A DNA stretch of 32,000 bases from Ignicoccus islandicus DSM 13165 (lineage in GTDB: Archaea > Thermoproteota > Thermoprotei_A > Sulfolobales > Ignicoccaceae), in contig NZ_CP006867.1 of NCBI RefSeq assembly GCF_001481685.1, forward strand, positions 960,001 through 992,000, in the 5' to 3' direction. Below, one piece after another: positions 2,900 through 23,535 of this stretch. Position numbers and translations under genes: made by a program. Every line of letters begins with the position of its first letter. Position 1 is the stretch's first letter. Below the pieces are notes generated by a model, which saw only the letters and a list, made by a program, of their open reading frames with translations, searched no databases and was not told the DNA's origin.

Positions 2900-4153
2900 T
2901 CACCATTCTAGGCTCTTGCCCTTCTCCTCACCGCCGCCTCTACCGGTAACTGCCGCTGCGACTGCTATGGCGATAACTAAACCTATAACGAACGCACCTA
3001 TAGTTACGGTGTAGTCAGTTACGGTCTTAGTAATCGTTTCAGTTACGGTGTTTACAATAGTCTTGTAGAGAGTCTTGGTTAATGTATTAGTTAAGGTTAC
3101 GTTGTTGGTTATAGTTAAGGTCTCAGTAACCGTCGAAGTGCTGGTAATTAAGCTAGTCACCTTCTCCGTAACGGTATTAACTATCGTTTGGAAAACTAGC
3201 TGCGTGGTCGTTAAAGTCGAGAAGACTGTAGTTGTAATGAAGTTGGTGAAGGTTACGTTATTTATTATTAGCTTAGTAGTGGTGTAAGTGAGCGTTTGGG
3301 TCAAGGTTTCCGTTCTAGTTACTGTTTCAGTCACGGTGTTAGTTACAGTCGTAGTTAGGTTCAAGGTAGTCGTAACCGTCTCGTATATGAACTCCTTCTT
3401 CGGGTACTTAGAAGGTAGCTTACCAGCTAGGTAAAGCAGAACGTTCTCAAACAATTTCTGTGCATTAGGATCAGTACTAATGTCGCTGAGTATGCCTCTC
3501 CAGGACATAATTACCATTTCGTCGCTCCACTTGGTTACCCTAATCGCTACGCAGTAAGCCGTCCTCCCTAAGCTTTCGTTTAGAGCTATTACGTCCTTTA
3601 CGAGCGGGATTAGGCAGCAACCGCCTGGAAGTTGGCTAACGCCTTGGAATATCGGGTGCTTAGGAGAAACTAGTATTGGTTTCTTAGCTTCGCAAGCTCC
3701 AAGTTTATAGAATCCGAGCCTGGTGAGCACTATGCTTCCAATGTAGTCTCCCGTATCGGTATCGTTCATGTATGGACTAGCTATTATCGCTACCCTCATT
3801 CCGGCCTTAAGCGCAGGAACTATTACTTGATCCACGTACGCAGTAGCTATCTTGTTATCGAGTTCGGGGTTACCCGTCGTGGCGTTTTGATCGAAGACGA
3901 GTAGTATTCCGCTATAGGCTTCCGGGTTGGGAGCGCTGGTTAGGCTTAATCCGAACTGTTGAGGCTGGGGCTTAGTTAGTATTTCCGCCCACACGCCTCC
4001 CTTGGAGATCAAGTCGTTCACAGTTCCAGCTATAGAGCTCCAAGCGAGGGAAGTATCTATAGGGTTGGAGGATATGATCCTTATATCGACCTTTCCAGCG
4101 TACAGCGTGGTTATTAGCAGTAGGCTCAATAGAGGCGTTAAAGACCTCTTCAT
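2900..4153 (-). CDS. Secreted, C-terminally membrane-anchored protein with a long Thr/Val-rich stalk (function unknown)
   Basis: N-terminal signal-like segment MKRSLTPLLSLLLITTLYA, then a globular domain of about 250 aa. About 130 aa of degenerate T-x-T/VTxT repeats follow (TIVNTVTE occurs twice). A hydrophobic anchor IGAFVIGLVIAIAVAAAV and a short charged tail close the protein. Confidence 0.7.
   Translation of the reverse strand: MKRSLTPLLSLLLITTLYAGKVDIRIISSNPIDTSLAWSSIAGTVNDLISKGGVWAEILTKPQPQQFGLSLTSAPNPEAYSGILLVFDQNATTGNPELDNKIATAYVDQVIVPALKAGMRVAIIASPYMNDTDTGDYIGSIVLTRLGFYKLGACEAKKPILVSPKHPIFQGVSQLPGGCCLIPLVKDVIALNESLGRTAYCVAIRVTKWSDEMVIMSWRGILSDISTDPNAQKLFENVLLYLAGKLPSKYPKKEFIYETVTTTLNLTTTVTNTVTETVTRTETLTQTLTYTTTKLIINNVTFTNFITTTVFSTLTTTQLVFQTIVNTVTEKVTSLITSTSTVTETLTITNNVTLTNTLTKTLYKTIVNTVTETITKTVTDYTVTIGAFVIGLVIAIAVAAAVTGRGGGEEKGKSLEW
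3000..3391 (-). repeat. Degenerate tandem Thr/Val codon repeats encoding the stalk of the 2900-4153 protein
   Basis: Reiterated gttac/ggtaac/agttac units on the plus strand. The translated pattern is TVTNTVTETVTRTETLTQTLTYTTT...TIVNTVTEKVTS...TIVNTVTETITKTVT. Confidence 0.6.
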
Positions 4154-4259: not shown

Positions 4260-4967
4260 ATGGAATCAGAATGGCCGTTAAGGGACTACATCTTAATGAT
4301 AGCAGTGGTAGTGTTACTACTCACTTCCCTTGGAGTATTGAACTTCGCCTTCATTAACTACAGTACGCATTACGAGTGGATGCCTTACGTAGCCGGTCCA
4401 ATCGTGGGGGCCGTTTACTTAATATCTTTAATTATACCGTTAGTAAGTAGAAGCTATACGCTCTACATGCTAGGCATTTTAGTATTCATGATTCCCACGT
4501 TGTTAGCTTACGTGATCACCTACGACGATAGCAGCATCTATGGGTACGAGGACGTGGCTTTCTTGCTCGTTTTGGACTTGCTGTTCGCAATGCTTCTTCA
4601 TAGAATGGAGGGTACCGATTCATTCACTAGCAGCGTTACCTATTCTATAAGTATTTCCTTAGTTGCCTTGACTTCCCTCATTGCCGTCACTATCAGTTTC
4701 AGGAACGGAACGGTGTACCAATTAGACACGCAATCGCTGCTCCTCCTTTCTAGTATAGCCTCGTTCTTATCGGTGATAAGCACATTTACGTTAAAGAAAT
4801 CGTTCGCCTTGACTTCCCTTCTAATCAATTACTTATTAATACTCATAATAGCAGTTAGCATAAATTTCGTCTATCCAGACGTGACCATATGGATGTTCCT
4901 AGCGCCCCTACTGGGCATAAACGCTATCCCCGCGTACTTGATCTACGTCTACGGAGTAGAGAGTTAG
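4260..4967 (+). CDS. Polytopic membrane protein, unknown family
   Basis: 235-aa ORF with about 6-7 hydrophobic helices and no recognisable catalytic motif. It is transcribed divergently from the Thr-rich surface protein gene. Confidence 0.6.
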   Translation: MESEWPLRDYILMIAVVVLLLTSLGVLNFAFINYSTHYEWMPYVAGPIVGAVYLISLIIPLVSRSYTLYMLGILVFMIPTLLAYVITYDDSSIYGYEDVAFLLVLDLLFAMLLHRMEGTDSFTSSVTYSISISLVALTSLIAVTISFRNGTVYQLDTQSLLLLSSIASFLSVISTFTLKKSFALTSLLINYLLILIIAVSINFVYPDVTIWMFLAPLLGINAIPAYLIYVYGVES

Positions 4968-4995: not shown

Positions 4996-5010
4996 CACCT
5001 TCACTAATAG

Positions 5011-5799
5011 GTGCGTAACGCAATGATAACTGCGAGTTGGGGAAACCTAGCGGCTCTGGTGAGGAGGGCCGACGTAGTAGTTGAAGTCATAGACGCTAGG
5101 ACACCTAATAACACTAGGAGCAAGAGGCTCGAGAGGTTAGTGGAGACTTTAAATAAACCGATAGTGTTGGCCTTGAATAAGGCGGACTTAGTTCCAAGGG
5201 AAATAGCTGAAGAGTGGACTAAGAAGTATAGGGCAGAAGGGTACGAGGCAGTTTACCTAGCAGCTAGGGAACACAAGGGTACGAGGGTATTGAGAAGGGC
5301 GATCAACAGGAGCGTGACCGTTAGACCAATAGTGGTAGCTGTCGTAGGGTACCCGAAGACCGGTAAGAGCAGCGTAATAAACGCCTTAAGGGGTAAAGGA
5401 GGCGCGTCCACCTCGCCCGTTCCCGGAACTCCAGGTTACACGAAGAAACCCGGTATATATAGAGGACCCGGTCAAATCTACTTCCTCGATACCCCTGGAG
5501 TCATCCCTCCGGATGGTTCGCCTTTAGAGAAGGCGATTAGGGGAGCTCCTCCGGAGAAATTGAAGGACCCCGTTAAGGTTGCTGTGGAACTGATAGAGTT
5601 CGTGAAGAGGTACGAACCCAAGGCCTTCTTAAAGGCTTATGGGTTCGATGGAGATCCTTACGAGATACTGGAGAAGCTAGCGATTAAGAGGGGTTGGTTC
5701 TATAAAGAGGACCACGAGCCCCTAATAGAGCAAGCCGCAAGGGCGATAATAATAGATTACCATAAGGGAAAGATACCGTTCTACGTTCCGCCTTACTAG
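5011..5799 (+). CDS. Circularly permuted GTPase (YlqF/RbgA/YawG-type, probable ribosome-biogenesis GTPase)
   Basis: The G-motif order is permuted: G4 LNKADL comes before G1 GYPKTGKSS, and G3 DTPGV follows. The start is GTG at 5011, with an alternative ATG at 5023. Confidence 0.8.
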   Translation: MRNAMITASWGNLAALVRRADVVVEVIDARTPNNTRSKRLERLVETLNKPIVLALNKADLVPREIAEEWTKKYRAEGYEAVYLAAREHKGTRVLRRAINRSVTVRPIVVAVVGYPKTGKSSVINALRGKGGASTSPVPGTPGYTKKPGIYRGPGQIYFLDTPGVIPPDGSPLEKAIRGAPPEKLKDPVKVAVELIEFVKRYEPKAFLKAYGFDGDPYEILEKLAIKRGWFYKEDHEPLIEQAARAIIIDYHKGKIPFYVPPY

Positions 5800-5992
5800 A
5801 GGCTCATGGTCTGGTGTCTTCGATCACTCGAACTCACCAATACCAGCCTTCTTCATCGCCAGTATCCCTTGGAACCTAAGGGGGTTTAAAATTGAGCAAT
5901 GAAGAGAGAATCCGGGAACGAGGTCATCGCGACCGATGAGATGGCCGCTCTTCTCTGAGTCCGATTCCGTAATTCCGTATGATTAAAAAGAA

Positions 5993-6967
5993 CTAAGCTT
6001 CTTCGGATATTTCCCTCAGCCACCTAGGGTGCTCTTCTAGTGCCCTCTTCCTAGGCATTCGACCGGTTAGGAAAGTTAGGTCCAGTGGGAAGATTGAGGG
6101 ACGGAAGTGGGTGTATGCTATGTGAACCATTAGTATGAACGTTACTGCTAATACTGCTTCCTTTACGTGCATTGTCCATAGTATGCCGCCTAGTACGTGA
6201 GGACCCCATAGGAGAATAATGAATCCGGGTATGCCGAGCACCAACATACCCCAGTATATGCCCCAATACTCGAACAATTGTTCCGGATCATATTTGCCGT
6301 AAGGCTCCGGCTTCTTACCCATCAGAACTGAAACGACGTTTTTCAGGAACTTGACGCTATAGAATTCAAGTATTGGGAACCTTTCCTTTAAGTTTTCGCC
6401 GCGAGCCTTGAGTATTAGCGCTTGGGTAGTGTAGTAAGTGAAGTGGAGAATAGCTAGTATACCCATTGCTATACCGCTGTAAACGTGCGTAACTATTAGC
6501 GCAACCTTGTCCCCGATTCCCGCGTTCGCAGCGAAACCAGTTACGGCGCATACGGTAAACGTTATTATCATCCATAGGTGTTGTATCCTTTGCCATTTAC
6601 TTAGCCTAGGGATCCATACGTCCCTTTTAGCCTCCTCGATTTCGTAATACAACCGCCACTTCCCAGCCATCCTTACTTCTTTGAGGAAATTGACGAGGAC
6701 CCATAGAGTTCCTACTATAGCTATAACGAGTATCAATAGATCGAAGGCGACTGATATTAAGCTTCTCCACCAGGCAACGTTACCTACATCGAAGCTTCCG
6801 AGAACGGCTCCGCGTACTGGCCACTCACTTAATAGAACTTTCAAGGCGTATTCATATACGAAACCCCAAGCGATACCTACAGCTATCGCCGTACCAATGA
6901 GGCTACCTATGAGATACCCTATTCTCCCTTCCTCGAAATCATGGGAAGGTGATCCCAATGTTCTCAC
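5993..6967 (-). CDS. Membrane b-type cytochrome subunit (FdnI/PhsC/Ni-Fe-hydrogenase cytochrome-b-like), with two extra N-terminal helices
   Basis: 324 aa. After two N-terminal TM helices comes RIQHLWMIITFTVCAVTGF...THVYSGIAMGILAILHF...WTMHVKEAVLAVTFILMVHIAYTHF. Conserved His residues sit in TM helices, as in four-helix dihaem b subunits. The gene starts 14 nt downstream of the cytochrome c gene. Confidence 0.65.
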   Translation of the reverse strand: MRTLGSPSHDFEEGRIGYLIGSLIGTAIAVGIAWGFVYEYALKVLLSEWPVRGAVLGSFDVGNVAWWRSLISVAFDLLILVIAIVGTLWVLVNFLKEVRMAGKWRLYYEIEEAKRDVWIPRLSKWQRIQHLWMIITFTVCAVTGFAANAGIGDKVALIVTHVYSGIAMGILAILHFTYYTTQALILKARGENLKERFPILEFYSVKFLKNVVSVLMGKKPEPYGKYDPEQLFEYWGIYWGMLVLGIPGFIILLWGPHVLGGILWTMHVKEAVLAVTFILMVHIAYTHFRPSIFPLDLTFLTGRMPRKRALEEHPRWLREISEEA

Positions 6968-6981
6968 CTCTATATTTAATA

Positions 6982-8151
6982 TTACTGCCCTTCGCCATGC
7001 TCTCTCTCCTCTTTTTCATTTGGTCGACCACCTCCACCCGAGGCTTTCGCTGCTGCGAACCCGGCTATTGCACCAATTGCCGCACTCGCTACGCTTCCGG
7101 TCGCTAGTGCCCCTTCCAGTTTCCTCTCGTTTGCAGTTTTCGCTTCGCGAACTGGAAGCGCTTCACTAGGCTCGAAGAAAGTATGAGCGTGAGGTCTCAT
7201 GTCGCGGTGGCAGCTCTCACAAGCCAAGAAGCCTCTGGTGAACTGACCGTCTTCGTAAAGTTTGCCCTTGAAATGGCAAGTACGACAACTGGCAGTGGTC
7301 GCTGACAGTCTCACGTCTCCGCTATATTCAGATTTAACTATCCTGGTCACTTCAGCTACAGCTATGTCAGCTGCCTTAGAAGGGTTACCAACTCTGTTTA
7401 AGGCATCGAAATAGTTGTTTAATAACATTACGGCGAACGCGGCAATGTCGCCAGTCAATCTACCGCATCTCTCGCTTCTCTCGGGCGATCCGCTTGCGTA
7501 TCCCGAAACCTCACACCATTTCCCTACTGAAACGTGGCATAGAGTAGATCCGCTCACGTTCTGAGGCAACCACTTCTTGCTTTTCATTCTCTCGGGTGGT
7601 ACGTACATCATTCCCTTTACAGCGTATTCGTTACTCTTACGGGTCGGAAGCGGAGTGGTCTCGTAGATCCTCATTAAAGCCTTGCCTAATTTATCCCAAG
7701 CCTTATGTTCGCCAACTATCATCTGTATCGCGAAGAGCGAGCCGTTGAGGGCCCCACATAGGGTTCCCCAACCCACGGCGCCTCCGTAACCGTATTGGAA
7801 TAAGCTGTGGAGGTGTTTCTTGTTCTTAATAGCATCTAAGGCCTTCTCTCTACTCGGTATAGGCAATAACGTCCAAGGATACCCTATCTTCTCGCGCAGT
7901 TGTATGGCTATGCTCCAAAAAGCCGCACCGGCACACTCGAATAGGTAATATCCCATATGGCCGAGTTTCCTGGTCTCCTCGGGATCCAACTTAGTGTAGG
8001 GCCAAGGTAGTTCGGGAGGCTCAATCGCTTCGGGTTTTTTGGGTTCCGTCTTCGCCTCTTCAGCGCTCGCGACTTGGGGAAAGGCCATGAGAAGCGGCAC
8101 GGTAGCTGCCGTAGAGACCAGGCGCTTCACGAATTCACGTCTAGAAACCAT
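6982..8151 (-). CDS. Tat-signal, C_GCAxxG_C_C-domain dihaem c-type cytochrome with C-terminal membrane anchor (split-Soret-cytochrome-like)
   Basis: The twin-arginine motif MVSRREFVKRLVSTAATVPLLMAFPQVASA begins at the ATG at 8151. The track start at 8235 would bury this signal and falls inside an AT-rich promoter-like tract. ECAGAAFW (7915-7938) and WGTLCGALNG are GCAxxG-family motifs. The two haem-c sites are CRTCH (7273-7287) and CESCH (7207-7221). A C-terminal hydrophobic segment reads SVASAAIGAIAGFAAA. Confidence 0.7.
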   Translation of the reverse strand: MVSRREFVKRLVSTAATVPLLMAFPQVASAEEAKTEPKKPEAIEPPELPWPYTKLDPEETRKLGHMGYYLFECAGAAFWSIAIQLREKIGYPWTLLPIPSREKALDAIKNKKHLHSLFQYGYGGAVGWGTLCGALNGSLFAIQMIVGEHKAWDKLGKALMRIYETTPLPTRKSNEYAVKGMMYVPPERMKSKKWLPQNVSGSTLCHVSVGKWCEVSGYASGSPERSERCGRLTGDIAAFAVMLLNNYFDALNRVGNPSKAADIAVAEVTRIVKSEYSGDVRLSATTASCRTCHFKGKLYEDGQFTRGFLACESCHRDMRPHAHTFFEPSEALPVREAKTANERKLEGALATGSVASAAIGAIAGFAAAKASGGGGRPNEKEEREHGEGQ

Positions 8152-11291: not shown

Positions 11292-11987
11292 TTGAGGAAG
11301 CCGAAGGAGCCCAGCGTCATTGGTTTCATGACCCTAGCGATCATTGGAAGTTCGATAGTATCGGGCTTCAACATCTTCGAGTTCGCTGTAGCAATTGGTT
11401 TGCTCGTTCTCCACTTGCTTACCTTCGACGAAGCGTTCGGTGCGATAAGAGCTGGGAGTTTTCCATTGAAATTGATAGCGATCAACGCGTTACCCTATCT
11501 CGTACTAGGACTCTGGACCAAGGCTTGGTTCCTGGTTTTCCCGGCATTGTTCTTACTGTCCTATTTACTGTTAGCTTTCAAGAGAGGTAACGACGAGATC
11601 ACTTACGTCCTAGGTTCATCGATACCCATATTGCCGGCTCTAGTCGTACCCCTAGCCTTGAATAAGTTCAACGACGTAACTGTAATTTACTGGGCGTTGT
11701 TAACGCTCTATGCAGTAGCTACAGCCGCTTACGTTGAAACGAAGCTCCCTTGGAGGAACCTTAATAACAAGGTTCCATTGCTCCTATGGTCTCCCAGTTA
11801 CGTGTTTATCGTTTTCGAACCTTTACTGGCATTAGCGCTGGTAGAACCCACAATTAAGTTCGCGCGAACAGCCATTTCGAACTCGAAAGTCCATCCGAAG
11901 GAGCTGAAGAAACTGGGTTGGAGGGAAATGGGAAGGAGCCTCTTGTTCGCGTTCCTTGTAGTATTTCTCTTGAGCAAATATACCTAA
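11292..11987 (+). CDS. Polytopic membrane protein, unknown family
   Basis: 231 aa with about 7 hydrophobic helices. The start is TTG, with an alternative ATG at 11328. It is the first gene of a same-strand trio. Confidence 0.6.
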   Translation: MRKPKEPSVIGFMTLAIIGSSIVSGFNIFEFAVAIGLLVLHLLTFDEAFGAIRAGSFPLKLIAINALPYLVLGLWTKAWFLVFPALFLLSYLLLAFKRGNDEITYVLGSSIPILPALVVPLALNKFNDVTVIYWALLTLYAVATAAYVETKLPWRNLNNKVPLLLWSPSYVFIVFEPLLALALVEPTIKFARTAISNSKVHPKELKKLGWREMGRSLLFAFLVVFLLSKYT

Positions 11988-12038: not shown

Positions 12039-14492
12039 TTGGGAGGGCTTAGATGTCCTAACGAAATTTGGATTGTTAATGACCAGATTAAGGAGTTCGC
12101 GTGTTATTACGAGTGCGAACGGAACAAACCCTGTATCAAGGAAACGGACGTTTACGGAGCTGAAATAATTTCCGTCATGGGTAAGCTATACCGTAAAGGT
12201 AATCGAATAGGCGCTCATCGTGGGAGCGGTAGCGGCGTAGTTTACTTGAAGCCCGTTCCCGGAGTTCGGGAAATAAGAGTTGGAACTTCAGTAATAACTG
12301 TAAAGAAGTTGCAGTTCAGCTTGAACGTAAAGGAAGCTTACCTACTAGCTCCGACGGACGTTACCTTAAAGTTCGAAGGAGATGAAGGCGAAATAGCGTT
12401 CAAGGGCTACCTCTACGGTTACCCTGTTCAAGGCTCCGTCCGGGTGCCTAAGGAGGAAGTCTTAACGGTTTTGCCGCGAAGCGAGGTAGGAGGGTTTTTA
12501 GAATTCGAAACGACGCCCATCTACCTGTTCGAGTTCTCGCTGCCTAAGCCTAAGGTACCAGTTAAGGACATGAAAGTATTGGAAGAGCCCTACTTGGGTT
12601 CGAGGGTATTAGTGAGCGTGGAAGTTCGCCCTAACTCGGAGTTTCAAGTGGAGGCCTACGGTGATCTGGCCAGGGGCAAGAGCGACAGCAAGGGAAAGGG
12701 AGCCGTCACAATAACCGTGAAAGAGAAGATTGGTAAGGGGAGGGTCACTGTAGGGCTATACTCGAAGGAGTTCGATCTACCCCTCCCAAAAGAGCCCTTC
12801 AGAATGGACGTAGTTGAAATAGGTAAGCGCAACAGGCTCAACCTCTCGATTACGTCCTCTATAGAGGCGGAAGTAGAGGTCGAGGTAGTCGGCTTAGACG
12901 CTCCGTTTAATAAGAAATTGCTTTTAAAGAGAGGCAAGAACCTCTTCAGTCTCGCTCTTCCCAAGCTTAAAGGATTCTCGGAACTGCGAGAGATAACTGT
13001 AAGGCTTAAATATGGAACTTACGAGTGTTCTAAGAAGTTATTAGCGAAGATAAGTGGAATGGCTAGAGTCGTGGCCTTCGATGGCAAGCGATTATGGATA
13101 TACTCCGAAGGGGACCTCGATTACGGTCAAATTAAGTTAATGAAGGGCGTTAACGTAATAAAACCTCCAATTAAGAACTTCGAAGTAAAGGAGAGATACC
13201 TAATTAGGGGACCGTTCGATGTAGACGAAGTAGTGGCCGTCTCTAAAGGTAAGTGCGTCCAAGTGATTGGTGATTCTATAGGAACCTTCTGCTTGGATGG
13301 AACAGTTAAGTTCGTAAGCGCTAACGGTGAATGGGTACTCTTCTCAGACGGAGCGAGGAGCGTGATTGCGCAGTCCCCAAGAAGTATCGGTAAGGTAATT
13401 GAAATAGGTGGGAACGTAGGTGCTTGCGCTAAGGGGATGCCGATAATATGTAATGAAAGCGGTTGCTTCAGGGTTCGTAATGGATCGTTGACTAAGGTCT
13501 TCGAAGGAGCCGAGAAGATAGAGGGTCCCTTCTTACTATGGAAAGGTAAGTTGTACGTGATAGAAGGGAACGAAGTTAGGGAAGTGACTGAGGCGGATAA
13601 CTTCTCTTACTTCGATGGTAAACTGGCTGTCTTAAAGGGAAGCGTAGTTGAGGTCGAAGGGAAGAAGTTCGAATTAGACGCTGACGAAATTTCAATTAGT
13701 TACGATTTCTTAATAGCGTTAAAAGGTAGAACAATGAAAGTGTATGACCTAGACGGCAACTTACTTTACGTTCATTCGCAAGAAATTGAGAGTGCCAAGG
13801 CTCTCCCCAACGGGGCAGCCCTTTCAAAGGGAGGAGAACTATTGATAGGGGAATTCGTCCCGGACCTCATAGAGGAACCCCTCTTCGTAACTAGTCATAC
13901 AATAGAGTGGAGTTACGAGGACTTGCACTTCGTTACGCGCAATTACCAATTGTTCGAGGAGGTGGAAGGCTGCGAGGCGCTTAACGAGTACTTGCTCCCC
14001 GAGGAGGGGTTCGTTGCGTGTAAGGTAGTTTACTCAGACGAACGCTACAAACCGTACGCATCCCACCTAGAGTCGTTCGAAACGGTTGCCAAGCTCTTCA
14101 AGCTTTCCCGTTTGATGAGAAGAGGTGAAAAACTAAGGAACTTGTTCCTGAAGGTATTGGACGAGAGCCTCCCATTAAACGAGATAGAATTGAGGAAACT
14201 ACTAGAGCGGTTGAGGAACGAGCTCGAAGAAGGAAGGATTGAACTAGAAAGCGTTAGGGAGATCGAGAACGTAATTAGAACTTTCCAAAAACCGCCGGAG
14301 GGCTCAGCAGAAGTATTCAGGGAAGTACTTTCTCTCAAAAACGATATGGAATTAGGGAAATTCCTATCAGAAAGGAGCATCTCCGCTTACGATTTAATTA
14401 AGGTTCTAAGCGCGGAGGTCAAGTATCCAAGGAAGCTAATAAGGGACGCCATAGAGACAGTGAACGCGATTAAAGCCATTAGGGGCCTATGA
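12039..14492 (+). CDS. Large (817 aa) cytoplasmic beta-rich protein with helical C-terminal domain, unknown function
   Basis: Long uninterrupted ORF with no signal peptide. The N-terminal Cys cluster is C-x15-C-x3-C-x5-C. The body shows beta-sandwich-like and then propeller-like repeats (for example GKLYVIEGNEV, GKLAVLKGSVV, GNLLYVHSQ). The last 140 aa or so are helical and charged. The start is TTG at 12039; the next in-frame start is the ATG at 12177. Confidence 0.7.
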   Translation: MGGLRCPNEIWIVNDQIKEFACYYECERNKPCIKETDVYGAEIISVMGKLYRKGNRIGAHRGSGSGVVYLKPVPGVREIRVGTSVITVKKLQFSLNVKEAYLLAPTDVTLKFEGDEGEIAFKGYLYGYPVQGSVRVPKEEVLTVLPRSEVGGFLEFETTPIYLFEFSLPKPKVPVKDMKVLEEPYLGSRVLVSVEVRPNSEFQVEAYGDLARGKSDSKGKGAVTITVKEKIGKGRVTVGLYSKEFDLPLPKEPFRMDVVEIGKRNRLNLSITSSIEAEVEVEVVGLDAPFNKKLLLKRGKNLFSLALPKLKGFSELREITVRLKYGTYECSKKLLAKISGMARVVAFDGKRLWIYSEGDLDYGQIKLMKGVNVIKPPIKNFEVKERYLIRGPFDVDEVVAVSKGKCVQVIGDSIGTFCLDGTVKFVSANGEWVLFSDGARSVIAQSPRSIGKVIEIGGNVGACAKGMPIICNESGCFRVRNGSLTKVFEGAEKIEGPFLLWKGKLYVIEGNEVREVTEADNFSYFDGKLAVLKGSVVEVEGKKFELDADEISISYDFLIALKGRTMKVYDLDGNLLYVHSQEIESAKALPNGAALSKGGELLIGEFVPDLIEEPLFVTSHTIEWSYEDLHFVTRNYQLFEEVEGCEALNEYLLPEEGFVACKVVYSDERYKPYASHLESFETVAKLFKLSRLMRRGEKLRNLFLKVLDESLPLNEIELRKLLERLRNELEEGRIELESVREIENVIRTFQKPPEGSAEVFREVLSLKNDMELGKFLSERSISAYDLIKVLSAEVKYPRKLIRDAIETVNAIKAIRGL

Positions 14493-16775: not shown

Positions 16776-17294
16776 TTAAAGACTGGAAAGCTTCTCCTTC
16801 TTCATCCATTCGTACTTATCTGAGGTCTCTGAAGGTAATCTCAAGAGCTCTACGTAACCGAACGCGCTCAACGCGACCGCTTCTGATAGGTTAGCGAGGG
16901 TTAGCTCGTTCGGATGGAGTAGCATTCCATTTATCTCTATTTTCCTCTTTACAATGACGTAAACCTTGCCGTTCTCGTCCGCTATTACCTCGTCCAAGGC
17001 GTCTACGTAATCAGATATTATTCTTAGTATGAGTTCAATTAGGTTGGAGTCAACGCTATCGTTAGGCACCTCCTCACCTATCATTGCTTTATATATCCTG
17101 AACTTGAACAAGTTCTTGAACATTCTCTTGTATTCCCTTAACCTCTCTCCGCAGTTTTCTCTATTAGTTGACTCCGAACACATTACCGCGAACTTTCTAT
17201 ATTCCGAAATTAGCTCTTCCCACGTAGTGGCCGATACGTTGAGCAAGTCGTTTGTATCCAATTCCCTTTTAAGGAGGTCGAACAAGCTCTTCAA
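16776..17294 (-). CDS. GINS51-like DNA replication complex subunit (putative)
   Basis: 172 aa. The N-terminus LFDLLKRELDTNDLLNVSATTWEELISEY, the helix FKFRIYKAMIGEEVP, and a C-terminal small beta domain VYVIVKRKIEINGMLLHPNELTLANLSEAVALSAFGYVELL follow the archaeal Gins51 A-domain/B-domain pattern. Confidence 0.5.
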   Translation of the reverse strand: MKSLFDLLKRELDTNDLLNVSATTWEELISEYRKFAVMCSESTNRENCGERLREYKRMFKNLFKFRIYKAMIGEEVPNDSVDSNLIELILRIISDYVDALDEVIADENGKVYVIVKRKIEINGMLLHPNELTLANLSEAVALSAFGYVELLRLPSETSDKYEWMKKEKLSSL

Positions 17295-17736: not shown

Positions 17737-20700
17737 ATGGAGTGCGGACCTCCAGCAAAGAGATTGCCGAGCATAACTGGTAAGGACACCGAGGCCGTCT
17801 TGAAGGAGCTATGGAAGAACGGACTTAACGTGCGGAAGGAAGTAGAAGAGCAAGTGAAAGCGTTCGTAGAAATGGCGAGGAAGAGCAACGAAACGGTCTC
17901 AGCGTTCGTTATAGGCGAATGGGGCGAGGGGAAGACCAGCGTCTTCGACGGATACGTGAGGGGCTTGGCCAAGGACTTCTGTCTACTAAGCGTTTCAGCT
18001 AGGAGAATAGTTGATTCTGTAAGGAGACTCAGGGCCGGAATGGGGCACTCGTCGGCATTGATCTTCGCCTCAGCGTTGTTGCACTCGATTTCAATGGAAG
18101 GAGAGGAGAGGGGAGAGAGCCTAGTAGATCCTTACAAAGGCGAGCCCCTCCACGAGTACTCCAAGAAGGCTTTGGATCAGTTGTTCGGCAAATGTGGTAA
18201 CAAAAAAGTAATAGTGTTCATAGATGAGTTCGAAGAAATAGTTTCGCCCAAGAACAAGGACGTCGTTAGCGAGGTCCTGAACGGATTGGTCGAACTGATT
18301 AATGGCGAGTATGGATACTTGAGCGAGAAGTATCCCGGAAGGCTCCACTTAATGGTAGCTTTAACTCCCTACGCCTACGTCAAGGCCCTAACCTTAGCTA
18401 ACATAGACGAGAGCCTGAAAGGTAGAACGGAGAGGAGACTGCACTTCAAGATAGAGCTCAGGCCCTTGAGTAGGGTAGAGGCCTTTAACCTAGCTAAGGC
18501 TATCTTGAACTTCGCCTTCGGAGAGGACTTCAGTCCATTCCCATACCAATTCCTCAATACTCTCTATACCATAGCGCAAGGCAATCCGGGGGCGTTAACG
18601 AGTCTCTTAAGGGTAGTATTGAGCCACTTGAGCGAGGGTAACTGCACTAGGTACACTAAAGACCCATACGAGCTAATAGAGGTGCTCTCTAACACTACCG
18701 TCTTCACCTACGTGGGATCGTCTAAAGCAATAGACAAGTTATACTTTGAGAGAATATTAACCTCTATAGCGAGAAATGAGGCGGAACGTAGGGCGGTGGC
18801 CACAGTAGCTGCTTACTACTACCCCCTCACTCTAAAGGAGATGAGCGATCTCGGAGGAGTGCCCGTGGAAGTAATTGAGACGTTGGACCAAAGGGCCTCC
18901 CTATCCTCAACACCTCTCTTAGAGAAGTTCTGGAGGACCGACGATTACTCCAAGGCCTTTATGGTAATACTTGAGAGCTTGAGAAACGTCTTCACTGAAG
19001 GGGACGAGGAGGAGTTTAGGAAGATCATTGAGGAACTAACGTATCCGAAAGGTGAGTCTAACCAATTCTTCCTGGTAATACCTGATGAGAGCAGCGCGGA
19101 GATCTTGGAGGACATAATAGGCGAAAGGAGGCTCATAGGGGATATAACCAAACTAGCTTCGTATTTGAAGAAGAAGTTGGAAGAGGCTGGTATTAAACTG
19201 GAAGAGAGCTACATGCTCTCGCGTAAACACGCCATAAACTTGTATCCCCCGCCTGCCGTTAGCGCAGCCTTCTTCATAAAAGATCCTCAAATGAGAGCTA
19301 AGGCGTGGAAGGATGCCCTCAACGCCGTGAGTAAGGGAGACGTGAACCTAGACAAAGCGTTGGTAGACATGTTGCTAACGGCCTTTCAAGGCAAGCACGT
19401 AGGCAAGATGGTTACAGTGAAGGTGCCAACGCCGTCTAAGCAAGTTCCGGTTACCGTTTACCCCAAAGCAGTACTCTTCCGAGATATAGAATTGAGGAAG
19501 ATAGCGGAGGAGGCTAAGAGGGAAGGTGCCAACGTACTCCTAGTTCTGACTAAGAGCGATATCGCAAACGAGATAGAGGACCTATTGAGCACTTCCGATA
19601 TAGATTACTTCGTTATAGGCGCTAAGGACGTAAAGGTAATACAGCTAGCTGTTTACTCGATTTACTCTTCTCCTGAAAAGAGGGACGTAATAGATCCCGA
19701 GAAGGTTCAAATGTTCTTAAAGAGAATAAGCGAGGAGTTGGGTATAAGGGAAGCGCTCGAGAAGTGGGCCGAGAAGGCGTACAAGGAAGGCATAATAGTT
19801 GACGACTTGCCTAGGATATCCGGTGCCTCTGAAGAGAGTATTGCTGAGGCCTACACCTTCTACTTGGCCTATCCATCAAATGAAATGACGACGGAAGAGG
19901 TGTTTGAGCACGTAGTGAAGACTGTTAGGAAGTTCATGATATACGGCAGAGGATCCCGTAAAAAGGTTCCCTTCAGTACGGGTATAGACGTGGAAAGTCC
20001 CTCCATGTTAAAGAGGTTCGAAGACGATTTAGTTGCAGCAGGCCTGTTAGAGAGAAGGAATGGGAAGCTTAGAATAACCATGAGCAAAGTAGAGAAGAGA
20101 ATACTAAACGAGGTTAAGAAGAGGGGCAAAGCCCCTTGGAAAGCTATAGAAAAAGAGTTCATATTAGTTGCAAACAACAAGAGGATACTTAGCGATTTCT
20201 ATTTAAAGATATTGGAAAAGAGGGGATTGGTGAGAGTAGAGAGGAGGGGGAACGAGCCCTATTTAGTGGAGCTCGTGGAACCATCGATAATAGCATCCGA
20301 GTTGGACGCTCAAGCGAACAAGCTCGAGGACTTGTGGAACAAGAACGGATACAAGTGGAGCACCTATGCCCACATAGTAGTCTCAAAGAAGAAGGAAGAC
20401 AACTTAATACTGTTGGAGGAGGTGAAGGACTACGTCGAGAAAGGGGCATTGGAGCTTAGAAGGGAGAGCGACGCCTACGCTATAGCCAGGAGAGCCACGT
20501 TCTTACTGAACTTAGGTAAGTACCTGGAGCATCAGCTAGTTCCAGTAACTAGGAAAGCGTATGAGGAAGCCTCCAGGTTGATTGATTCGTACGATAAGAA
20601 GATTGACGAATTCAAGACGAAGCTAAGAGCAGTTACCAATAAGACCCTCAGCGTTGCCAAAATACCGACCGTATCTCCCAGCGAGTTCGAAGAGGTAGTG

Positions 20701-21903
20701 AGGCTTCACGAACTCATGGAGAAAGCTGTGGACATTGATTCAAAACCCTTACCAAAAGACGTGATGAATAGATTAGTGGCGGAAATGAGAGCCAACGGCA
20801 TCCTCCCAGATCTATTCTACTTCGAGAAATTCTACGATCAGAGGTCTTGGGCACTAGCGGATTTCTTTAACTTAAAATATCACTTAATTAAAGAGAAGAC
20901 GAACGAGTTAGATCGCTTGCTCAGAACCTACGAGGACTACTTAAGGGAAGCTGAGAAGTACCTTAATAGAATAGAGAACAAGGAAAGGGAAGTAGTTACT
21001 AGACTGGAAAGCTTGGCTTCCGGGGGCTTCAATACTAGGCTGAGCTCAATAGCTTATTCGTGGTTGAAGGAACTAATTGTAGGCGAAGGAAGGAACTTCT
21101 CGAAGATAGCTCTCTCGTTAAAGGATCTAGTGGAAATGCTAAGTGAAGTAGAGAAGAGCGTCGGCGTGTTCGACGACAACGTCTTAGCTATCCTAAAGAT
21201 GTTGGATGAGCTTAAGGACGAGGAAGTGCGATTTCACCGCAACTTGGCGTACCTCAAGCTCTGGTATCAATTCCTCTCCTCCTTCTACGATAGGAACGAA
21301 GTAGGCAAGGAGCTGGACCTATTGAAGCGCAAGATAAGCGAACTGGAGAGCTCCTACAGGAAGATTTCGGATGACGAAAGGGAGCCCAATAGCTTAGCGG
21401 ACTTGAGTACGGTATTGAGGGCTCTAAGGAGAAGAATAGCGGAGCTGAATTCCGAAGTTGAGAAGTTGAAGGGAAGCGCTAGGGAACTCCATGAGGCGAA
21501 AATGAACGAACTGATTGAGGATTTAAGGAGCGTGAAGAAAACTATAAACCTATTAAAGAAGCTAGATCCGAAGGCAGAAGTACCTAAGGCCATATTGAAC
21601 GTCGAAATGAAAATAAGGAAGCTCGCTGAGAGCGCTCCAACGTCTATGGACGAGAACGCGACTTATTCCAAGCTAAAAGATCAGATAGAGAAATTGAAGA
21701 CTTACGTTAAGGTAAACGTAAAGAGCGTGTTGAGCGAGAAGGAGGTATTAGCGCTGGAACTAGTTAGTAGAAAGAAGGAATGGAAACTCAATGAGCTCAT
21801 AGGGGAACTCGAGGGAGCTGGCGTGAAAGGAGAGGAAGCGCTCAAAATCATTCTATCCCTTCAGAACAAGGGACTGCTCGAGGCCCTAGTGACGGTCAAG
21901 TAA
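17737..21903 (+). CDS. Giant (1388 aa) P-loop NTPase with winged-helix-like modules and a long coiled-coil C-terminal half; unknown function
   Basis: Walker A is IGEWGEGKTS (17911-17940) and Walker B is VIVFIDEFEE (18208-18237). AQGNPGALTSLLRVV resembles the ORC/Cdc6 lid and sensor-2 segment. wH-like segments include KVEKRILNEVKKRGKAPWKAIEKEF...LEKRGLVRVERRG and the C-terminal EKEVLALELVSRKKEWKLNELIGEL...LQNKGLLEALV. Residues about 900-1330 are heptad-like, K/E/L-rich helices. Confidence 0.8.
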   Translation: MECGPPAKRLPSITGKDTEAVLKELWKNGLNVRKEVEEQVKAFVEMARKSNETVSAFVIGEWGEGKTSVFDGYVRGLAKDFCLLSVSARRIVDSVRRLRAGMGHSSALIFASALLHSISMEGEERGESLVDPYKGEPLHEYSKKALDQLFGKCGNKKVIVFIDEFEEIVSPKNKDVVSEVLNGLVELINGEYGYLSEKYPGRLHLMVALTPYAYVKALTLANIDESLKGRTERRLHFKIELRPLSRVEAFNLAKAILNFAFGEDFSPFPYQFLNTLYTIAQGNPGALTSLLRVVLSHLSEGNCTRYTKDPYELIEVLSNTTVFTYVGSSKAIDKLYFERILTSIARNEAERRAVATVAAYYYPLTLKEMSDLGGVPVEVIETLDQRASLSSTPLLEKFWRTDDYSKAFMVILESLRNVFTEGDEEEFRKIIEELTYPKGESNQFFLVIPDESSAEILEDIIGERRLIGDITKLASYLKKKLEEAGIKLEESYMLSRKHAINLYPPPAVSAAFFIKDPQMRAKAWKDALNAVSKGDVNLDKALVDMLLTAFQGKHVGKMVTVKVPTPSKQVPVTVYPKAVLFRDIELRKIAEEAKREGANVLLVLTKSDIANEIEDLLSTSDIDYFVIGAKDVKVIQLAVYSIYSSPEKRDVIDPEKVQMFLKRISEELGIREALEKWAEKAYKEGIIVDDLPRISGASEESIAEAYTFYLAYPSNEMTTEEVFEHVVKTVRKFMIYGRGSRKKVPFSTGIDVESPSMLKRFEDDLVAAGLLERRNGKLRITMSKVEKRILNEVKKRGKAPWKAIEKEFILVANNKRILSDFYLKILEKRGLVRVERRGNEPYLVELVEPSIIASELDAQANKLEDLWNKNGYKWSTYAHIVVSKKKEDNLILLEEVKDYVEKGALELRRESDAYAIARRATFLLNLGKYLEHQLVPVTRKAYEEASRLIDSYDKKIDEFKTKLRAVTNKTLSVAKIPTVSPSEFEEVVRLHELMEKAVDIDSKPLPKDVMNRLVAEMRANGILPDLFYFEKFYDQRSWALADFFNLKYHLIKEKTNELDRLLRTYEDYLREAEKYLNRIENKEREVVTRLESLASGGFNTRLSSIAYSWLKELIVGEGRNFSKIALSLKDLVEMLSEVEKSVGVFDDNVLAILKMLDELKDEEVRFHRNLAYLKLWYQFLSSFYDRNEVGKELDLLKRKISELESSYRKISDDEREPNSLADLSTVLRALRRRIAELNSEVEKLKGSARELHEAKMNELIEDLRSVKKTINLLKKLDPKAEVPKAILNVEMKIRKLAESAPTSMDENATYSKLKDQIEKLKTYVKVNVKSVLSEKEVLALELVSRKKEWKLNELIGELEGAGVKGEEALKIILSLQNKGLLEALVTVK

Positions 21904-23178: not shown

Positions 23179-23535
23179 TCAAGTCTTAGTTAGCTTCTCC
23201 TTGAGTTGCAAGGTCGAAAGGAGGGCTACGATCAATATTATTAGCTCCAAGAACAAGTGAGGTACCCATAGTCTCGGTAGCTCGCCATAGGGAGTTATTA
23301 CGCTCCTGGAAACCCTTCCCGCGTTGAACCAAGCTACGGAGCTCAAGATCAAGTAGCCTTTGGTCTCGTTCTTCCCCAAGCAATATAGCGAGACTGCATA
23401 TAACGCTAACCAGAAGACGTTTTCGAAAAACAAGAATAGTGGGAATTGCTTAATGACGCCAACGAGGTGCGCTAGATCAATAGCTACGTAGTTAAGCATG
23501 AGAAACGCGACTAAGCCTATCAACGCTTTCTTCAA
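23179..23535 (-). CDS. Small membrane protein (about 4 TM), unknown
   Basis: 118-aa hydrophobic ORF with no recognisable motifs. Confidence 0.5.
   Translation of the reverse strand: MKKALIGLVAFLMLNYVAIDLAHLVGVIKQFPLFLFFENVFWLALYAVSLYCLGKNETKGYLILSSVAWFNAGRVSRSVITPYGELPRLWVPHLFLELIILIVALLSTLQLKEKLTKT

Follow-up and report, generated by a model that had tools for sequence, protein, structure and literature searches.

The stretch of DNA analysed here comprises 32,000 nucleotides (nt) of the genome of Ignicoccus islandicus DSM 13165 (contig NZ_CP006867.1, positions 960,001 to 992,000 of the forward strand) and is referred to as the window; positions without a locus name are those of the window. 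On its forward strand, a single complete open reading frame (ORF) extends over 17737..21903 and codes for 1388 amino acids (aa) followed by a stop codon, in agreement with an earlier note on this DNA that had named it the largest gene of the window. The ORF is 100 % identical to EYM_05590 of the same strain, annotated as 'hypothetical protein', and its start matches that of the orthologs, which have the N-terminus MECGP..KRLPSITGK in common. The product belongs to a family of AAA+ ATPases (large-ATPase family) which, outside Ignicoccus, are mostly encoded beside genes for NurA and/or HerA and which we propose to act as the sensor or loader of a HerA-NurA system. Domains and motifs of EYM_05590 are compiled in Table 1.

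AlphaFold2 models were calculated from an alignment of 48 homologous sequences in two overlapping pieces, residues 1-860 and 760-1388, with predicted local distance difference test (pLDDT) values of 86 and 88, respectively. The best matches of the 1-860 model in the PDB (Foldseek) were the archaeal Cdc6/Orc1 proteins 1fnn (E 2.4e-7) and 2v1u (E 4.5e-7), the alignments of which span 491-497 columns and take in the first winged helix; in the model, the latter is separated from the lid by ~30 residues forming three short strands and one helix. TnsC was likewise matched (7ufi, E 1.6e-6, root-mean-square deviation 5.9 Å, 319 columns), as were RuvB, eukaryotic ORC subunits and the N-terminal domain of BrxC (9zdx and 9zll, E about 2.5e-4, ~560-570 columns). 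Avs3 appeared only at rank 23 of the list for the N-terminal model, with TM values of 0.10-0.20.

On the sequence level, EYM_05590 scored 22.2 bits with Pfam AAA (cut-off 21.2). Beyond AAA, single-sequence scans (Pfam, NCBIfam, PADLOC and PDB sequences) yielded a sub-threshold HTH_67 match and compositional matches of the tail; among the latter, LmuB, SKA2 and designed bundles were dismissed as matches to coiled-coil composition. No Cdc6, ORC or TniB model of Pfam and NCBIfam matched at E<=1. A profile of the first 420 residues retrieved TnsC as top match among PDB sequences (E 5e-4), and the lid motif SQGN, aligning with SQGNMRSL of TnsC, is common to both proteins; a family profile including the helical tail returned from PDB sequences coiled-coil noise only. 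Twelve residues are invariant among the 48 homologs (W62, G63, G65, K66, D163, E164, E166, G201, T210, A213, R234 and K884), and EYM_05590 possesses every family-wide invariant and nearly invariant residue. Two of them, T210 and R234, are located at the secondary-structure positions expected in the model for sensor 1 and the arginine finger, respectively (helix 225-234 and strand 237-240 in the case of R234), and are proposed to serve these functions. The predicted fold assigns the family to the initiator clade (ORC/Cdc6/TnsC-like) of AAA+ ATPases, with apparently intact catalytic residues.

These results bear on the reading of the N-terminal part in the earlier note. Its hhhhDE Walker B (VIVFIDEFEE, residues 158-167) and its ORC/Cdc6-like lid (AQGNPGALTSLL, residues 280-291) were both recovered, the lid in agreement with the Cdc6/Orc1 fold match. 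The Walker A, GEWGEGKT, is present, but the assignment to the KAP type reduces to a likeness of motif (GxWGxGK[ST]): KAP_NTPase (PF07693) of Pfam had no match at E<=1, and the predicted core is compact, without a membrane-helix insertion. BrxD and STAND sensors had been named there as broadly similar, but membership of these families was not sustained by any sequence model; no STAND model of Pfam matched EYM_05590, and no effector domain was found. The suggested likeness to BrxC holds for the domain order and for the Foldseek match to 9zdx, but not for sequence models, as no match to BrxC, DUF499 or DUF6079 was obtained at E<=1 (Pfam, PADLOC), and hhalign of the family profile with BrxC of E. 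coli HS gave a probability of 0.2 %.

Downstream of the AAA+ part, the conservation of the family alignment peaks at residues 501-520, in the region of a family-specific motif (Table 1). In four loci of one Desulfurococcales subclade (L027, L034, L035 and L043), two adjacent ORFs (~600 and ~885 aa), 1-3 nt apart, take the place of the single large gene. The fission point is identical in all four and corresponds to residue 556 of EYM_05590 (nt ~19404), which supports a domain boundary at this position. The winged helix-like modules expected by the earlier note, including the one at the C-terminus, are present in the models, and the winged-helix pieces of the C-terminal model match MarR/MecI/TFE-type domains with probabilities of up to 0.99 (Foldseek); beyond these isolated winged helices, the 760-1388 model is without a PDB fold match at E<0.2. 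The C-terminal winged helix is the fastest-evolving part of the protein, with 62 % identity to the closest ortholog vs 88 % in the AAA+ part. The tail, which had been described as uninterrupted heptad-like helices, is predicted to consist of about 12 helices of 10-62 residues, broken by loops and one beta hairpin. Its long helices (residues 913-974, 1046-1093, 1147-1213 and 1220-1276) appear in the model to be folded back on one another as two hairpins, and significant 3.5-residue (heptad) periodicity was detected in two helices only (1046-1093 and 1220-1276). The earlier view of a single ATPase head and a protein unlike SMC or Rad50 is in accord with the model: relationship to SMC, Rad50 and ASRP was rejected on account of the single N-terminal AAA+ head, the winged helix at the C-terminus and a longest helix of 62 residues. 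ASRP of NCBIfam matches the helical region only (E 0.22).

Table 1. Domains, motifs and a putative promoter element of EYM_05590 (positions in the window)
Feature	Position	Strand	Remarks
TATA-like element ATAAATA, possible (candidate) promoter of EYM_05590	17694..17700	+	37-43 nt 5' of the ATG, in the 76-nt divergent intergenic region; from sequence reading
N-terminal helices, AAA+ core and lid, ORC/Cdc6/TnsC-like	17737..18636	+	residues 1-300; AlphaFold2, Foldseek, Pfam AAA
Walker A, GEWGEGKT	17914..17937	+	residues 60-67; W62, G63, G65 and K66 invariant in 48 sequences
Walker B, VIVFIDEFEE	18208..18237	+	residues 158-167; D163, E164 and E166 invariant in 48 sequences
ALTPYA, proposed sensor 1	18358..18375	+	invariant T210, end of strand beta-4 (203-209, AlphaFold2)
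GRTERRLHF, proposed arginine finger	18421..18447	+	invariant R234 before strand beta-5 (AlphaFold2)
Lid motif AQGNPGALTSLL	18574..18609	+	residues 280-291; N283 kept in at least 90 % of sequences
First winged-helix-like module	18637..18921	+	residues ~301-395, after the lid as in Cdc6/Orc1; AlphaFold2, Foldseek
Alpha/beta region	18922..19404	+	residues 396-556; AlphaFold2; 3' limit is the natural gene-fission point
Family-specific motif YPPPAVSAAFFIKDPQMRAK	19243..19302	+	residues 503-522; P506, F513 and R520 nearly invariant
Beta-rich and alpha/beta domain, then helices	19405..20016	+	residues 557-760; AlphaFold2 pLDDT mostly 85-94
Second winged-helix module	20017..20280	+	residues ~761-848; AlphaFold2 in both models; MarR, MecI and TFE Foldseek matches
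Helical region	20281..21735	+	residues 849-1333; AlphaFold2 pLDDT 88; no PDB fold match at E<0.2
C-terminal winged-helix module	21736..21900	+	residues 1334-1388; AlphaFold2 helices 1334-1343, 1351-1360 and 1365-1377

The protein is not the orphan it had been taken for. Orthologs of the Ignicoccus clade, from I. pacificus, I. hospitalis and related metagenome-assembled genomes (MAGs), share 42-80 % identity with it, and ~40 further homologs of almost equal length were found at 22-26 % identity. Searched exhaustively (HMMER) with the N-terminal profile, a set of 1.84 billion representative proteins yielded 312 matches at E<=1e-3, 244 at E<=1e-10 and 185 at E<=1e-30, nearly all of 1390-1600 aa; from the small number of matches and their near-uniform length, the family is considered discrete and rare. 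Almost nothing outside the family itself was found by the family profile in these proteins. Among GTDB species representatives, archaeal carriers within the Desulfurococcales are Ignicoccus, Pyrodictiaceae, Ignisphaera and Hyperthermus, and other archaeal carriers belong to Bathyarchaeia, Aenigmatarchaeota, Thermoplasmata, Korarchaeia, Archaeoglobales, Hydrothermarchaeum, Nitrosopumilus and Methanophagales. Bacterial members are confined to scattered MAGs of Chloroflexota, Bacillota, Bacteroidota, Poribacteria and an actinobacterium. In Thermococcus, the large ATPase is present in only some species. The family is catalogued as arCOG00371, to which the I. hospitalis ortholog Iho_0081 is assigned (PMC3149612, Table S1), and is uncharacterised.

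Gene neighbourhoods were searched in all fetched loci with NurA and HerA hidden Markov models (HMMs) built in-house, a partner being defined as located within 6 kb; flanks of at least 3 kb upstream and at least 2 kb downstream were regarded as adequate. Of 42 species-representative loci from outside Ignicoccus, 33 were found to have NurA and/or HerA beside the large gene; 22 of the 42 have adequate flanks, and among these the number is 20. The first distant homologs presented co-directional genes for NurA (~375 aa) and a DUF87/HerA-like ATPase (~550 aa) with the large gene in last position, and tight operons of NurA, HerA and the large gene were found in loci L001-L004. By their grouping in a neighbour-joining tree of the large protein, three types of loci can be distinguished: in type 1, NurA and HerA are followed by a large gene of 1390-1430 aa (many archaeal phyla and bacteria); in type 2, the large gene (1440-1500 aa, sometimes split) precedes NurA (Desulfurococcales); in type 3, a large gene of ~1570 aa is divergent from HerA-NurA.

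A third recurrent neighbour is a TGT-like gene, found in 16 of the 42 loci (14 of the 22 adequately flanked ones), which usually comes with an ArcS-core (DUF5591) or a DUF6884 gene; type 1 loci almost always carry the TGT-like gene together with a standalone DUF5591 gene. DUF5591 corresponds to the catalytic core (C1) of the archaeosine synthase ArcS (PMC10516641). DUF6884 is a distant relative of YaaA/PF03883 (PMC11701544), to which DpdC of the Dpd system belongs (PMC12839542). Genes for DUF6884 were identified in bacterial loci and in the operon of Thermococcus argininiproducens (L014, L020, L049 and L054). Depending on the locus, the TGT-like, DUF5591 and DUF6884 genes are positioned downstream, upstream or divergently, and their co-occurrence is retained despite this variation, a pattern characteristic of functional linkage.

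In the cultured T. argininiproducens (CP080572.1, complete genome; L054:10001-20012), one operon unites all six genes, which encode HerA (562 aa), a large ATPase of 1561 aa that matches the family HMM with E 4.6e-160, NurA (365 aa), DUF5591 (265 aa), TGT (348 aa) and DUF6884 (158 aa). Matched to curated models, the partner HerA reached 95 bits with canonical HerA (cut-off 800), the partner TGT 121 bits with TgtA (cut-off 350) and 60 bits with DpdA of NCBIfam (cut-off 200), and the partner DUF5591 protein 46 bits with ArcS (cut-off 600). Since these scores are far below the cut-offs, the partners are regarded as distinct paralogs rather than the housekeeping enzymes. The TGT-like partner gene is short and devoid of a PUA domain; its product matches Pfam TGT with E 1e-24 to 1e-28, and its top match in PADLOC is DpdA (E 1.2e-14). 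The combination of the TGT-like gene with DUF5591 and/or DUF6884 recurs in L054, L001, L004, L010-L030 and L049, i.e. in archaea and bacteria. It may represent an undescribed 7-deazaguanine modification module. PglZ, BrxB, BrxA and PglX were absent from the window and from the Pfam annotations of L001-L005 and L053-L055. A full-text literature search, the coverage of which excludes most subscription journals, retrieved no description of the operon or of arCOG00371; an earlier description is possible.

Among known systems, BrxC/PglY (Pfam DUF6079; DUF499 variants in BREX-related, Dnd and Ssp systems) is similar in size (1200-1400 aa). Its modules are arranged as AAA+ with a first winged helix-turn-helix (wHTH1), alpha+beta domain, wHTH2 with coiled coil, and C-terminal module (PMC13326643), the same order as modelled for EYM_05590, and its N-terminal unit ends at residue 551, compared with residue 556 at the fission point of EYM_05590. 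Both BrxC and the large-ATPase family adjoin DNA-modification and nuclease genes. However, BrxC has no sequence-level relation to the family, is a weaker structural match to EYM_05590 than ORC/Cdc6, TnsC and RuvB, and is accompanied by PglZ, BrxB, BrxA and PglX instead of HerA, NurA and TGT/ArcS-like proteins. BrxC binds double-stranded DNA only with ATP, which requires its alpha+beta and wHTH domains, and forms head-to-tail dimers and heptamer-like rings (PMC13326643). Orc1/Cdc6 and TnsC/TniB have the AAA+ core, the lid and the subsequent winged helix in common with EYM_05590, which, in contrast to Orc1/Cdc6 and TnsC, is 3-4 times longer, with ~1000 extra residues, and belongs to a family not linked to origins or transposases.

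Associations of an Orc/Cdc6-clade AAA+ protein with a HerA/FtsK translocase and a nuclease were described in 2024 as 'capture systems' (PMC10853773), and BREX-Related Capture (BRC), combining HerA, a BrxC-like ATPase and a TGT homolog, in 2026 (PMC12839542). Like the large-ATPase family, these systems occur sporadically in archaea and bacteria (PMC10853773, PMC12839542). The arrangement of these systems, a HerA/FtsK gene and a nuclease gene adjoining the ATPase gene, was found for the family in the aforementioned 20 of 22 loci and in L054, but not in the Ignicoccus window. The published systems employ restriction endonuclease or PglZ effectors, with an inactive restriction endonuclease inserted in the Orc/Cdc6 protein, and also use DUF6079-type BrxC, STAND, DUF4007 and GNAT proteins, whereas the effector of the large-ATPase family is NurA, named in neither PMC10853773 nor PMC12839542. 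In addition, the HerA of the large-ATPase operons is of the classical type, unlike that of the published capture systems, and their modification genes comprise TGT with the ArcS core (DUF5591) and/or DUF6884, the latter two not being named in the capture papers. No protein of the large-ATPase family is named in PMC10853773 or PMC12839542.

The HerA-Mre11-Rad50-NurA operon likewise associates HerA and NurA with a large helical-arm ATPase expected to recognise DNA; it relies, however, on the ABC-type Rad50 with Mre11, whereas the large-ATPase family is single-headed AAA+ and lacks Mre11. In Thermococcus, the large-ATPase system is presumably additional to the housekeeping HerA-Mre11-Rad50-NurA operon (cf. 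PMC12977600). With Dpd, the large-ATPase operons share a TGT homolog, the top match of which in the defence library is DpdA, and the YaaA/DpdC-related DUF6884. Yet the operon TGT remains below the DpdA cut-off, is closer to the archaeal TgtA model (121 bits), and is accompanied by neither DpdB nor the DpdD-K helicases; none of the Dpd-like genes is located in the Ignicoccus window. The general theme is published, and the combination of the large ATPase with NurA, the ArcS core and DUF6884 is a further variation on it.

In the window, EYM_05590 is preceded divergently by the gene of a 96-aa protein without family matches and then by a Gins15-like gene, the GINS-like neighbour of the earlier note. 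The corresponding 172-aa ORF (16776-17294, reverse strand) matches Gins15 of NCBIfam (E 4.6e-14; 52 bits vs the 130-bit equivalog cut-off) and has no Pfam match. DUF359 (GTP-dependent dephospho-CoA kinase-like), Spt4 and Rpo7 genes converge on the 3' end of EYM_05590, consistent with the rpo7-spt4 operon noted before. In the longest-ORF listing, the 3' ends of EYM_05590 and the DUF359 ORF overlap by 18 nt (21886-21903), and a like tail-to-tail overlap of the two genes is present in L055 (12192-12218), the closest Ignicoccus-like MAG. Synteny with DUF359, Spt4 and Rpo7 is kept in I. hospitalis, I. pacificus and L055, and the upstream neighbour varies (Gins15-like in the window, a cupin in I. 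hospitalis, cdvABC in L055). In L055, cdvA-cdvB-cdvC (5003-7656) are located directly upstream of the large gene; in L005, a Pyrodictium-like contig, cdvABC (1-2731) lie ~5 kb upstream of a type 2 paralog. As this adjacency is restricted to L055 and L005, it is treated as chance or local synteny. Model scans of the 32-kb window revealed no methylase, nuclease or PglZ, in line with the earlier observation that no defence partner is nearby, and no tRNA or Rfam genes.

Compared with the 80 %-identical ortholog, the nonsynonymous substitution rate (dN) is 0.13 and the synonymous rate (dS) is saturated; where computable, dN/dS amounts to 0.045 in the AAA+ part and 0.067 in the next region. At least 10 members of the Ignicoccus clade, at 42-80 % identity, possess the frame in full length. 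In the proteome of I. hospitalis, Iho_0081 is represented by 78 spectral counts for the pure culture and 76 for the co-culture (PMC3149612, Table S1), so that the lack of expression considered in the earlier note does not apply. EYM_05590 is clearly a functional gene under strong purifying selection. Elsewhere in I. hospitalis, an adjacent DUF87/HerA-NurA pair, Iho_0735 (585 aa) and Iho_0736 (342 aa), an extra unpaired NurA of operon-type (type 1) size detected by proteomics, Iho_0403 (366 aa), and a further HerA-like protein, Iho_0221 (402 aa), are encoded (PMC3149612, Table S1).

Components of the system are also separated in another archaeon. In Hyperthermus butylicus (CP000493.1; L053:5507-12800), a HerA-NurA pair of the partner type occurs without an adjoining large ATPase; a second NurA (444 aa) and a tyrosine integrase are found at distances of 3 kb and 7 kb, respectively. 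Pyrodictiaceae genomes accordingly have the components in scattered positions, and, on the case of H. butylicus, unlinking of the system genes is not unusual in the order of Ignicoccus.

Based on the operons with NurA/HerA and TGT-like genes outside Ignicoccus, we interpret the family as the subunit that, dependent on ATP, would bind DNA as sensor or loader in a 'capture'/restriction-like HerA-NurA system, of which Ignicoccus would retain the large ATPase alone at the locus; we assign this reading a probability of about 60 %. By analogy with ORC/Cdc6, TnsC and BrxC, ATP binding would induce head-to-tail oligomerisation via R234 on double-stranded DNA, which the winged helices and alpha/beta domains would contact. 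The assembly would mark a DNA site or molecule and recruit or license an effector; in most lineages, this role would fall to a dedicated paralog pair encoded in the same operon, the hexameric translocase HerA and the nuclease NurA. TGT, ArcS-core and DUF6884 proteins may provide a 7-deazaguanine mark for the distinction of self and non-self, as in Dpd. Protein deazaguanylation is reported for type IV CBASS, and a protein could, as there, be the alternative target of the modification. The ancestral system would have been a modification-linked, HerA-driven machine for DNA 'capture' or restriction, a repair machine being less likely. The Ignicoccus lineage may derive from an operon-type branch and have kept the large ATPase in a stable housekeeping neighbourhood, where it most likely would still be an ATP-dependent DNA-binding switch, acting in trans with HerA/NurA encoded elsewhere (Iho_0735/0736, Iho_0403) or in a role adopted by the host. 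The analysis documents the gene, its predicted fold and motifs, the family, the gene contexts, expression and selection; that the protein binds DNA, oligomerises, recruits partners and serves in defence, and what it does in Ignicoccus today, is inferred. A more specific version is less likely than not: in an undescribed five- to six-gene system, a 7-deazaguanine-type mark would identify self, the large ATPase would load HerA-NurA on unmarked DNA, and Ignicoccus would have shed the other genes from the locus, keeping the sensing ATPase for a new host function.

Several observations weigh against the sensor/loader reading. The five loci of the Ignicoccus clade (the window, L006, L007, L008 and L055) all lack a HerA, NurA or TGT-like gene linked to the large gene. 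No Ignicoccus protein is among the best 120 of 477 and the best 120 of 308 relatives retrieved with two partner-type HerA queries, so that a dedicated HerA partner may have been lost. In the neighbour-joining tree, the large protein of the Ignicoccus clade does adjoin the type 1 locus L003, and its length fits type 1, the simplest reading of both being an operon-type ancestor with subsequent loss of linkage; the tree, however, is a simple distance tree that carries no support values. The sensor-2 position of the lid is occupied by G in Ignicoccus and by R in some relatives, and the ATPase mechanism of the family may therefore differ from that of ORC. A role in defence is suggested by the patchy distribution in archaea and bacteria and by analogy, and no relative of the large ATPase was found on IMG/VR viral contigs.

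The last finding would fit a factor of DNA double-strand break repair instead of an anti-invader system: the large ATPase would sense DNA ends in the manner of Rad50/Mre11 and load a second HerA-NurA resection machine, Ignicoccus using HerA-NurA encoded elsewhere. End resection in archaea is the task of HerA-NurA, which as a rule requires the end-recognising coiled-coil ATPase Mre11-Rad50 as a partner (PMC5715905, PMC3326311), and the large gene abuts HerA and NurA. Hjc and DNA ligase are among the chromosomal neighbours in L054, and the small Ignicoccus genomes (contigs of 1.30-1.69 Mb) have retained the large gene as part of their core. Nevertheless, we consider a repair function unlikely: the TGT/DpdA-like, ArcS-core and DUF6884 genes that recur in the loci are characteristic of base modification, as in Dpd, and not of break repair, the distribution is sporadic across the divide between archaea and bacteria, only some Thermococcus species carry the gene, and the terminal winged helix evolves fast, as is typical for proteins of conflict systems. 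It appears quite unlikely that the large ATPase organises or segregates chromosomes or is some other housekeeping DNA factor of Ignicoccus, one that would bridge or compact DNA with its hairpins and winged helices independently of a nuclease. The label of arCOG00371 ('Chromosome segregation ATPase/orc1/cdc6 family', class D) would be in its favour but is an automatic description. Synteny of this core gene with information-processing genes (Rpo7, Spt4 and Gins15; cdvABC in L055), a constitutively detectable product and the missing linkage to partner genes in the Ignicoccus clade also speak for such a role; the upstream neighbours, however, differ among Ignicoccus species, so that no housekeeping linkage is conserved on that side, and elsewhere it is an accessory gene of patchy occurrence whose operons also encode a nuclease, a translocase and enzymes of base modification. 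Moreover, the helical region is short (hairpins of ~60 residues) and without SMC-like fold match. The chromatin organiser or cytoskeletal scaffold considered in the earlier note likewise receives no support from the family context, i.e. operons with NurA, HerA and TGT/ArcS-like genes. Finally, the gene might be a decaying, functionless remnant of a lost defence operon, in agreement with the absence of the operon partners from the locus in every Ignicoccus-clade sequence and with the small genomes. This is highly improbable and close to refuted by the full-length frame in the clade, the retention of every family-invariant residue, a dN/dS of about 0.05 and the detection of the protein by proteomics.

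If the sensor/loader reading is true, it provides the first functional context for arCOG00371, which until now has carried an automatic label only, and a second, dedicated use of HerA-NurA outside Mre11-Rad50 repair, tied to a BrxC-like ATPase and 7-deazaguanine enzymes. The Ignicoccus gene would then be a natural case of a lone surviving subunit maintained as a core gene and would bear on the domestication of defence components. As a concrete candidate system, the operon seen across the family can be put to the test, and since the system is present in cultured organisms (T. argininiproducens, T. guaymasensis, Pyrodictium, Hyperthermus and Pyrolobus), experiments could be attempted.

Apart from EYM_05590 and its neighbours, the window contains ORFs of 118-417 aa without Pfam or NCBIfam match at 2900-4153 (reverse strand), 4260-4967 (forward), 11292-11987 (forward) and 23179-23535 (reverse). 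The second largest ORF (12039-14492, forward strand; 817 aa), equally without match to these libraries, looks beta-rich in its N-terminal and helical in its C-terminal part.

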